This document shows positions 54,001-57,000 of a stretch of 64,000 nucleotides of DNA, piece after piece. The position numbers were made by a program. How positions within the stretch are numbered: the stretch's first letter is position 1; each line of letters begins with the position of its first letter. The stretch comes from Escherichia coli O127:H6 str. E2348/69 (GTDB lineage: Bacteria; Pseudomonadota; Gammaproteobacteria; Enterobacterales; Enterobacteriaceae), in NCBI RefSeq assembly GCF_000026545.1, contig NC_011601.1. The stretch is one strand, 5' to 3'.

Positions 54001-57000
54001 CGGACGCCCACAGCGACCAGCACGGATAACGGTAAGCAGAACACCTATTTCTCATCACTGGATAACATGGTTGCCCAGGGCAATGTTCTGCCTGTTCTGT
54101 ACGGTGAAATGCGCGTGGGGTCTCGTGTGGTTTCTCAGGAGATCAGCACGGCAGATGAAGGGGACGGTGGTCAGGTTGTGGTGATTGGCCGCTGATGCAA
54201 AATATTTCATGTGAAACCGCCTCCGGGCGGTTTTGTCGTTTATGGAGCATGACGAATGGGCAAAGGAAGCAGTAAGGGGCATACCCCGCGCGAAGCGAAG
54301 GACAACCTGAAGTCCACGCAACTGCTGAGTGTGATTGATGCCATCAGCGAAGGGCCGATTGACGGTCCGGTGGATGGATTAAAAAGCGTGCTGCTGAACA
54401 GTACGCCGGTGCTGGACAGTGAGGGGAATACCAATATCTCCGGTGTCACGGTGGTGTTCCGGGCTGGTGAGCAGGAGCAGACTCCGCCGGAGGGATTTGA
54501 ATCCTCCGGCTCCGAGACGGTGCTGGGTACGGAAGTGAAATACGACACGCCGATCACCCGGACCATCACGTCGGCAAACATTGACCGACTGCGTTTTACC
54601 TTCGGTGTGCAGGCACTGGTGGAAACCACCTCAAAGGGGGACAGGAATCCGTCGGAAGTCCGCCTGCTGGTTCAGATACAACGTAACGGTGGCTGGGTGA
54701 CGGAAAAAGACATCACCATTAAAGGCAAAACCACCTCACAGTATCTGGCATCGGTGGTGGTGGGTAACCTGCCGCCGCGCCCGTTCAATATCCGGATGCG
54801 CAGGATGACGCCGGACAGCACCACAGACCAGCTGCAGAACAAAACGCTCTGGTCGTCATACACCGAAATCATCGATGTGAAACAGTGCTACCCGAACACG
54901 GCACTGGTCGGCGTACAGGTGGATTCGGAGCAGTTCGGCAGCCAGCAGGTGAGCCGTAATTATCATCTTCGCGGGCGCATTCTGCAGGTGCCGTCGAACT
55001 ATAACCCGCAGACGCGACAATACAGCGGTATCTGGGACGGAACGTTAAAACCGGCATACAGCAACAACATGGCCTGGTGTCTGTGGGATATGCTTACCCA
55101 TCCGCGCTACGGCATGGGGAAACGTCTTGGTGCGGCGGATGTGGATAAATGGGCGCTGTATGTCATCGGCCAGTACTGCGACCAGTCAGTGCCGGACGGC
55201 TTTGGCGGCACGGAGCCGCGCATCACCTGTAATGCGTACCTGACCACACAGCGCAAGGCGTGGGATGTGCTCAGTGATTTCTGCTCGGCGATGCGCTGTA
55301 TGCCGGTATGGAACGGGCAAACGCTGACGTTCGTGCAGGACCGACCGTCGGATAAGGTGTGGACCTATAACCGCAGTAATGTGGTGATGCCGGATGATGG
55401 CGCGCCGTTCCGCTACAGCTTCAGCGCCCTGAAGGACCGCCATAATGCCGTTGAGGTGAACTGGATTGACCCGAACAACGGCTGGGAGACGGCAACAGAG
55501 CTTGTGGAGGACACGCAGGCCATTGCCCGTTACGGTCGTAACGTCACGAAGATGGATGCCTTTGGCTGTACCAGTCGGGGGCAGGCACACCGCGCCGGGC
55601 TGTGGCTGATTAAAACAGAACTGCTGGAAACGCAGACCGTGGACTTCAGCGTGGGTGCTGAAGGGCTTCGCCATGTACCGGGCGATGTCATTGAAATCTG
55701 CGATGATGACTATGCCGGTATCAGCACCGGCGGGCGCGTGCTGGCGGTGAACAGCCAGACCCGGACGCTGACGCTCGACCGTGAAATCACGCTGCCATCC
55801 TCCGGCACCACGCTGATAAGCCTGGTTGACGGGCAGGGTAATCCGGTGAGCGTGGAGGTTCAGTCCGTCACCGACGGACTTAAGGTGAAAGTGAACCGGG
55901 TTCCTGACGGCGTTGCCGAATACAGCGTGTGGGGGCTGAAGTTGCCGACGTTGCGTCAGCGCCTGTTCCGCTGTGTGAGTATCCGTGAGAACGATGACGG
56001 CACGTATGCCATCACCGCTGTGCAGCATGTGCCGGAGAAAGAGGCCATCGTGGATAACGGGGCGCACTTTGACGGCGACCAGAGCGGCACGGTGAATGGT
56101 GTCACGCCGCCAGCAGTGCAGCACCTGACCGCAGAAGTCACCGCAGACAGCGGGGAATACCAGGTGCTGGCGCGCTGGGACACGCCGAAGGTGGTGAAGG
56201 GGGGAGCTTTATGCTTCGCCTGACCGTGGCAGCGGATGACGGCAGTGAGCGGCTGGTCAGCACGGCCCGGACGACGGAAACCACATACCGCTTCAGGCAG
56301 CTGGCGTTGGGGCGTTACACGCTGACAGTCCGGGCGGTAAATGCCCGGGGACAGCAGGGCGATCCGGCGTCGGTATCGTTCCGGATTGCCGCACCGGCAG
56401 CGCCGTCACAGATTGAGCTGACGCCGGGCTATTTTCAGATAACCGCCACGCCGCATCTTGCGGTTTATGATCCGACGGTACAGTTTGAATTCTGGTTTTC
56501 TGAAACGAAGATTTCAGATGTCTCACAGGTGGACAAATCTGCCCGCTATCTTGGTACGGCACTGTACTGGGTAGCCTCCGGCCAGAATATTAAGCCGGGC
56601 CATGATTATTACTTTTATGTTCGCAGTGTGAATACCGTTGGCAAATCGGCATTCGTGGAGGCTGTCGGCCAGCCGGGTAATAATCCTGAAGAGTATCTCA
56701 ATTTTTTTGAAGGGAAAATAAACAGCACCCTGCTGGGGCAGGAGCTGAATGATCGTATTAATGCCTCTGCATTGCGCAGTGAAGTTGAGCAACTGGAGGA
56801 TGAGGTCAATCAGCGACTGGAGAGTGATATTGCCGGGGTGACCCAAAAAATCGGGGAAACTGAAAACAGCCTCACGCAGCTGGTTGCTAAAAAAATGATG
56901 AGCAGTCACTGGCCATATCCCAGGTGAGTCAGAAAGTGGACAACGTCAGTAGCGAACTCACGCAAACGGTCAGTCAGAGTAATGAGGAGAATGCACGCCA

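Follow-up and report, generated by a model that had tools for sequence, protein, structure and literature searches.

The tail tip gene J of the lambdoid prophage PP4 of enteropathogenic Escherichia coli O127:H6 E2348/69 is interrupted at a short run of G residues, which raises the question of whether the locus carries a genuine mutation, an assembly error, a switch in tract length or a site of recoding. We examined it within a 64,000-nucleotide stretch of the chromosome (contig NC_011601.1), hereafter the window. The element was identified as PP4 from its effector set (PMC5685641, PMC2697328), and positions 28717-64000 are base-for-base identical to CP059840.2. Its genes follow the order tape measure, M-like, L, C40 peptidase (K), I, J, lom, stf and tfa, with a DUF1076 (NleG-like) gene, nleB2, nleC, an nleH remnant and nleD coming after tfa; the annotation thus places J after L, K/C40 peptidase and I and before lom and stf, and lambda has the same order I-J-lom-stf. 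The frameshift itself is already known, since RefSeq annotates the gene as a frameshifted pseudogene: PGAP labels it 'phage attachment tail tip protein J, frameshifted' in three assemblies, and its sequence is identical in the window and in all three.

The run comprises exactly six G (56199-56204) when read directly from the window, and the incoming frame crosses it as AAG GGG GGA GCT TTA TGC TTC GCC TGA (window 56190-56223). The N-terminal ORF listed for this frame extends over 54256..56223 and encodes 655 amino acids, whereas translation recovers the continuation of J after the tract, SFMLRL..., at a frame offset of -1, which fits one absent base. Alignment with five intact J genes placed a single-base gap inside the tract, where the intact alleles read GGGGGGGAG (L006, L008), GGGGGTGAG (L004, L005) and GGGCGTGAG (L007), and insertion of one G at this point rejoined the two frames. 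The break does not depend on how often runs of six G occur by chance, because homology shows it directly. The first-pass annotation had described a J N-terminus near-identical to that of lambda over several hundred residues, a stop at 56223, a continuation in the next frame and a switch at the six-G run, and all four points agree with the translations and alignments; indeed, the repaired PP4 protein is 98-100% identical to lambda gpJ (NP_040600) over the first 500 residues and 92.5% identical over residues 1-849. Its further proposal, that one extra base would restore a contiguous J, holds at the G tract, where the frames rejoin, and fails for the gene as a whole, which is also broken at a run of seven A (Table 1).

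Table 1. Positions in the window of the parts of the J pseudogene and of the tape-measure pseudogene of PP4.
Feature	Position	Strand	Remarks
gpJ (tail tip attachment / host specificity protein) pseudogene	54256..57970	+	3715 nt, two bases under the intact 3717-nt allele
G6 tract, site of the first one-base loss	56199..56204	+	frame 0 to -1; single-base gap relative to intact alleles
Premature TGA closing the N-terminal fragment	56221..56223	+	650 native residues + ALCFA
Middle J segment, -1 frame	56205..56927	+	SFMLRL...LVAKK, then out-of-frame residues
A7 tract, second one-base loss in J	56889..56895	+	A8 in all five intact relatives
C-terminal J segment (central fibre and receptor-binding part), third frame	56896..57970	+	from translation; Pfam Phage_Tail_Tip, Ig_GpJ_C
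Tape-measure gene H pseudogene	48810..51865	+	PGAP 'frameshifted'; aligned with intact H of two relatives

A further shift of -1 follows from the second break, and a TGA (56925-56927) closes the middle frame; gene callers report this segment as a 238-amino-acid ORF (56211-56927). In the alignment with the five intact genes, the gaps at the G tract and at the A run were the only frame-changing differences. The remaining gaps were in-frame ones of 3 nt and 6 nt, together with a 5-nt gap in a divergent region, which realigns against the four 3702-nt alleles that bear a different C-terminal module. Addition of one G and one A generated an open frame of 1238 amino acids that is 98.4% identical, over all 1238 residues and with no gaps, to the J protein of A25 (WP_201488479.1), which has the same C-terminal module and whose gene measures 3717 nt, two more than in PP4. 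Both A25 J and 377323_2f J (WP_032344386.1) carry the G7 form of the tract; each has one more G and one more A than PP4 J, and hence an open frame.

Precomputed Pfam matches assign Phage-tail_3, FNIII-A_GpJ and Ig_J to the first fragment and Ig_J and Ig_J_second to the middle one; from this fragment-wise distribution of domains, it follows that the break leaves the tip-assembly part on one side and the Ig/FNIII domains, central fibre and receptor-binding end on the other. The Pfam set as a whole (Phage-tail_3, FNIII-A_GpJ, Ig_J, Phage_Tail_Tip, Ig_GpJ_C) is that of lambda J. PP4 J therefore shares homology, domains and tail-operon position with the lambda gpJ family and lacks its uninterrupted frame: it is a pseudogene of this family with two one-base losses. 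The comparison with lambda also brings out differences, in that lambda J is an uninterrupted protein of 1132 amino acids whereas PP4 J is interrupted twice and measures 1238 amino acids when repaired. The repaired protein has a segment at about residues 800-940 that is either additional or divergent, and in the receptor-binding part at its C-terminus, which has also diverged, identity is about 48%. At the site of the first break, lambda reads GGC GTG, without a G run, where PP4 has six G. For users of databases, the 655-aa, 238-aa and 344/348-aa 'proteins' are to be understood as pieces of one J pseudogene.

Both breaks in J lie in homopolymers, which are classic sites of indel errors, and an undercalled tract in a gene that is in truth G7 and intact would have the same appearance. 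The resequencing that the first-pass annotation proposed has effectively been carried out by other groups. When 1 kb spanning the site was used as query, it matched three RefSeq chromosomes of E2348/69 at 100% identity (CP059840.2, LT827011.1 and LT903847.1, the last being that of an engineered derivative), with the next record at 97.9%. LT827011 and LT903847 were obtained from Illumina MiSeq data at >100x and assembled both de novo and with guidance by a reference (PMC5685641); the partial use of a reference in these two assemblies would favour an artefact, whereas Illumina reads at >100x seldom miscall a run of six G. Beyond these records, a collection of 15 billion proteins (NCBI, ENA, Logan) contains the 655-aa fragment, as an exact match, on 6 contigs and the 238-aa fragment, likewise exact, on 9, and a positional look-up located the exact 238-aa product on at least 15 public contigs. 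A separate gene call of 238 amino acids implies that both J frameshifts are present on the contig concerned. Ten carrier contigs were compared with the window, five of them from NCBI assemblies, four from ENA assemblies and one from a Logan run, and all ten have G6 and A7. The carriers include GCA_001265415.1, GCA_001267335.1, GCA_002466305.1, GCA_053257795.1 and GCA_053076565.1. The tract is thus out of frame in the three RefSeq assemblies and in these ten contigs, which originate in separate projects, ENA metagenome assemblies at 20-540x k-mer coverage among them.

Several of these carriers have SNPs of their own, and hence do not all reproduce a single reference. Between 1 and 27 substitutions separate seven of the ten from the window, and in two contigs, L137 and L138, the substitutions are clustered and fall at third codon positions of the repaired frame in 9/10 and 19/20 cases. 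Since the carriers have their own SNPs, mostly in third-position clusters, we take them to be distinct strains with the same allele and not re-assemblies. Other runs in the window are also in frame, such as a G8 run in H (51664-51671), and a third frameshift, in H, lies outside any homopolymer. Taken together, the sequence comparisons make it extremely unlikely that J is intact and was misread, and sequencing error is effectively excluded as the cause of the J frameshifts. A frameshift in a homopolymer is thus not always a sequencing error, a caution for which the independent assemblies of gpJ provide a proven case.

The third-position SNP clusters indicate recombination of the carriers with other J alleles. 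In L137 (GCA_001265415.1) and L138 (ERZ1023040), they suggest that gene conversion between J copies persisted after the gene had been inactivated. If gene conversion between J copies were ongoing, the clusters would be explained, and the pseudogene could one day be repaired.

A different kind of lesion was seen elsewhere in the window, in torS (16679-19422, minus strand), which is annotated 'frameshifted' owing to a one-base indel and a substitution near its 3' end, at about 16704 (TTAT-TAACC versus TTATGCAACC). We considered it as another homopolymer frameshift and rejected it, as the indel is of a different kind and lies away from the nearby G6 run (16755). A 261-nt version of the torS site is common to about 1048 complete E. 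coli genomes, and because so many genomes share it, the variant is lineage-wide and not specific to E2348/69.

A genuine difference in tract length could also reflect a contingency tract, in which frequent changes in the length of the G run would toggle J expression within the population. Such a switch would be in keeping with a homopolymer located in a host-range gene and with the existence in nature of both G7 (ON) and G6 (OFF) alleles. We thus looked for variation in tract length among E. coli complete genomes with a 48-nt query containing the G6 site, G7 genomes being recovered as one-gap matches. G6 occurred only in the three E2348/69 records, all 20 other genomes with the same flanks had G7, and no G8 or G5 was seen among them. 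The ten further contigs all have G6, with no heterogeneity among these carriers, which are consensus assemblies. In a sample of 120 viral contigs from IMG/VR, the site reads GGCGTG in 75, GGGGGTG in 33, G7 in 3 and other in-frame forms in 9, so that 120/120 are in frame; G7 is thus a minority allele, one base from the common GGGGGTG. The tract is, in addition, short for a contingency locus, and switching at this site alone would be useless, since the second frameshift is fixed. On these grounds, we regard phase variation as very improbable.

The intact forms of the site, AAG GGC GTG (lambda-like), AAG GGG GTG and AAG GGG GGG, bear on the way in which the base was lost. The intact relatives hold exactly one base more than PP4 at the tract, either GGGGGGG or GGGGGTG, and contraction of the former or loss of the T from the latter gives GGGGGGAG either way. 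The flanking haplotypes were similarly close to both forms near the site and did not favour either origin: when the best G7 haplotype was compared with the best GGGGGTG haplotype, the numbers of differences from the window were 1 versus 1 within +/-100 nt, 3 versus 4 within 200 nt and 29 versus 16 within 400 nt. Intact J has only three runs of seven or more, which account for 22 of its 3717 nt, and both frameshifts fall in two of them; the chance of both deletions lying in such runs, if randomly placed, is about 3.5e-5. Because the second lesion in J is unambiguously a homopolymer contraction, and because the intact gene has so few runs of this length, G7 and A8 among them, replication slippage in a G7 run is most likely the origin of the first lesion, and is favoured over loss of T from GGGGGTG. 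Weighing against certainty, deletions outside runs did occur in PP4, as H lost one A in CAG[A]CGG. The deletion may have created the G6 run rather than having been caused by it.

Beyond codon 780, two synonymous sites are all that separates J of the window from A25 J, and given so few differences there is no sign of long neutral decay in this part of the gene. Such low divergence suggests that J was inactivated recently or has recently recombined with intact copies, and it would equally fit continued use of the sequence.

A further alternative is that the broken gene yields some full-length J, by -1 ribosomal frameshifting on G_GGG_GGA and on the A7 run or by transcriptional slippage. In the incoming frame, G_GGG_GGA at 56199-56205 fits the X_XXY_YYZ slippery heptamer, as a formal match only; a -1 slip at the G tract would yield exactly KGGSFML, and the corresponding slip by tRNA-Lys at the A7 run would restore exactly the native VAKKNDEQ. 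Frameshifting by -1 is indeed a feature of lambdoid tail operons, where it operates in G/GT. No stable RNA structure that could stimulate slippage was found 3' of either site, however, the minimum free energies having z scores of +1.40 (56206-56290) and -0.45 (56896-56980) relative to shuffled sequences, and runs of six G and seven A are too short for efficient slippage by E. coli RNA polymerase. The two-frame layout, moreover, is not conserved: five close relatives and all 120 IMG/VR contigs are in frame, and 20 genomes have G7. Full-length J would need two independent low-efficiency events in each round of translation, and H has a break of its own at a site that is not slippery. Programmed recoding is thus highly implausible, and nothing in these sequence analyses supports the gpJ break being a regulatory device, be it phase variation or recoding. 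We attach a very small likelihood to a related possibility, namely that G6 and A7 might permit rare -1 slippage (ribosomal, or as replication reversion), or that gene conversion might someday repair J. Were rare slippage to take place, PP4 would still produce traces of full-length J or could revert, and would so retain a low-level route for the spread of the nleB2/nleC/nleD cassette.

The one-base-pair loss at J codons 649-651 is, with high confidence, a genuine and heritable loss-of-function mutation in PP4 of EPEC E2348/69. In the sequence of events that we propose, one base pair would have been lost by slippage in a G7 run, or else as the T of GGGGGTG, so that the ribosome would read 650 native residues followed by ALCFA and stop at 56221-56223. 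The N-terminal tip-assembly part would be left without the FNIII/Ig domains, central fibre and receptor-binding C-terminus that belong to it in an intact J. The slip from A8 to A7 and the one-base deletion in H would add to this to give a non-functional tail module, and PP4 would be a locked-in, decaying lambdoid prophage whose type III effectors (nleG-like, nleB2, nleC, nleD) are intact. The sequences show the deletion, where it lies, that many independent assemblies have it and that relatives are intact; that slippage was the mechanism, that the tail has lost its function and that neutral decay was the evolutionary cause, we infer.

The tape-measure gene H provides the third lesion of the tail module, which thus has three one-base deletions, one in H and two in J. 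One A is lost after 50921 of the window, in a non-homopolymer context, and the first stop follows at 50937. The regulatory, replication, lysis, head and most tail genes of PP4, as well as its effector cargo, are annotated as intact. With inactivating mutations in two virion-essential genes, H and J, PP4 would be a defective lambdoid prophage. A literature search returned nothing specific on PP4 tail defects. Frameshifted, defective lambdoid prophages are well described from related pathogens: the effector-carrying lambdoid Sp prophages of EHEC O157 Sakai resemble PP4 in having frame-shift mutations and other defects in morphogenesis genes (PMC2669165). Sakai carries several defective prophages in its genome (PMC2669165), and in E2348/69 a nucleotide search found four places that match the J segment, three of them besides PP4 J. 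Some defective Sakai prophages can still be mobilised with help from other prophages (PMC2669165). The tail lesions of PP4 are typical of a prophage at an early stage of decay or domestication: in this reference EPEC strain, the tail module is broken at H and J and the type III cargo is intact, as is usual in a domesticated prophage. The gpJ frameshift is in this sense ordinary prophage decay, and its significance is mostly one of bookkeeping.

Several smaller features were noted along the prophage. At the in-frame G8 run of H, two relatives read GGGGGTTG, and T-to-G changes adjoining G runs, here and in the GGGGGTG to GGGGGGG forms of J, have lengthened the homopolymers, which may reflect dislocation-type mutagenesis. 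The tail chaperone genes G and T (48114-48838) each have a CDS of their own in the annotation. G ends in ...CCG GAA AAG TCC TGA and is without the GGGAAAG motif of lambda, so that the slippery site expected for a G-T frameshift is unlike that of lambda. In the early region of PP4, a small hypothetical gene adjoining the N antiterminator gene (26387-26609, minus strand) is annotated as frameshifted. Between nleC and nleD lie the NleH remnant (63447-63614) and a fragment of an IS256-family transposase (63662-63783), which together are a degraded effector 'exchangeable locus' at the end of the prophage.
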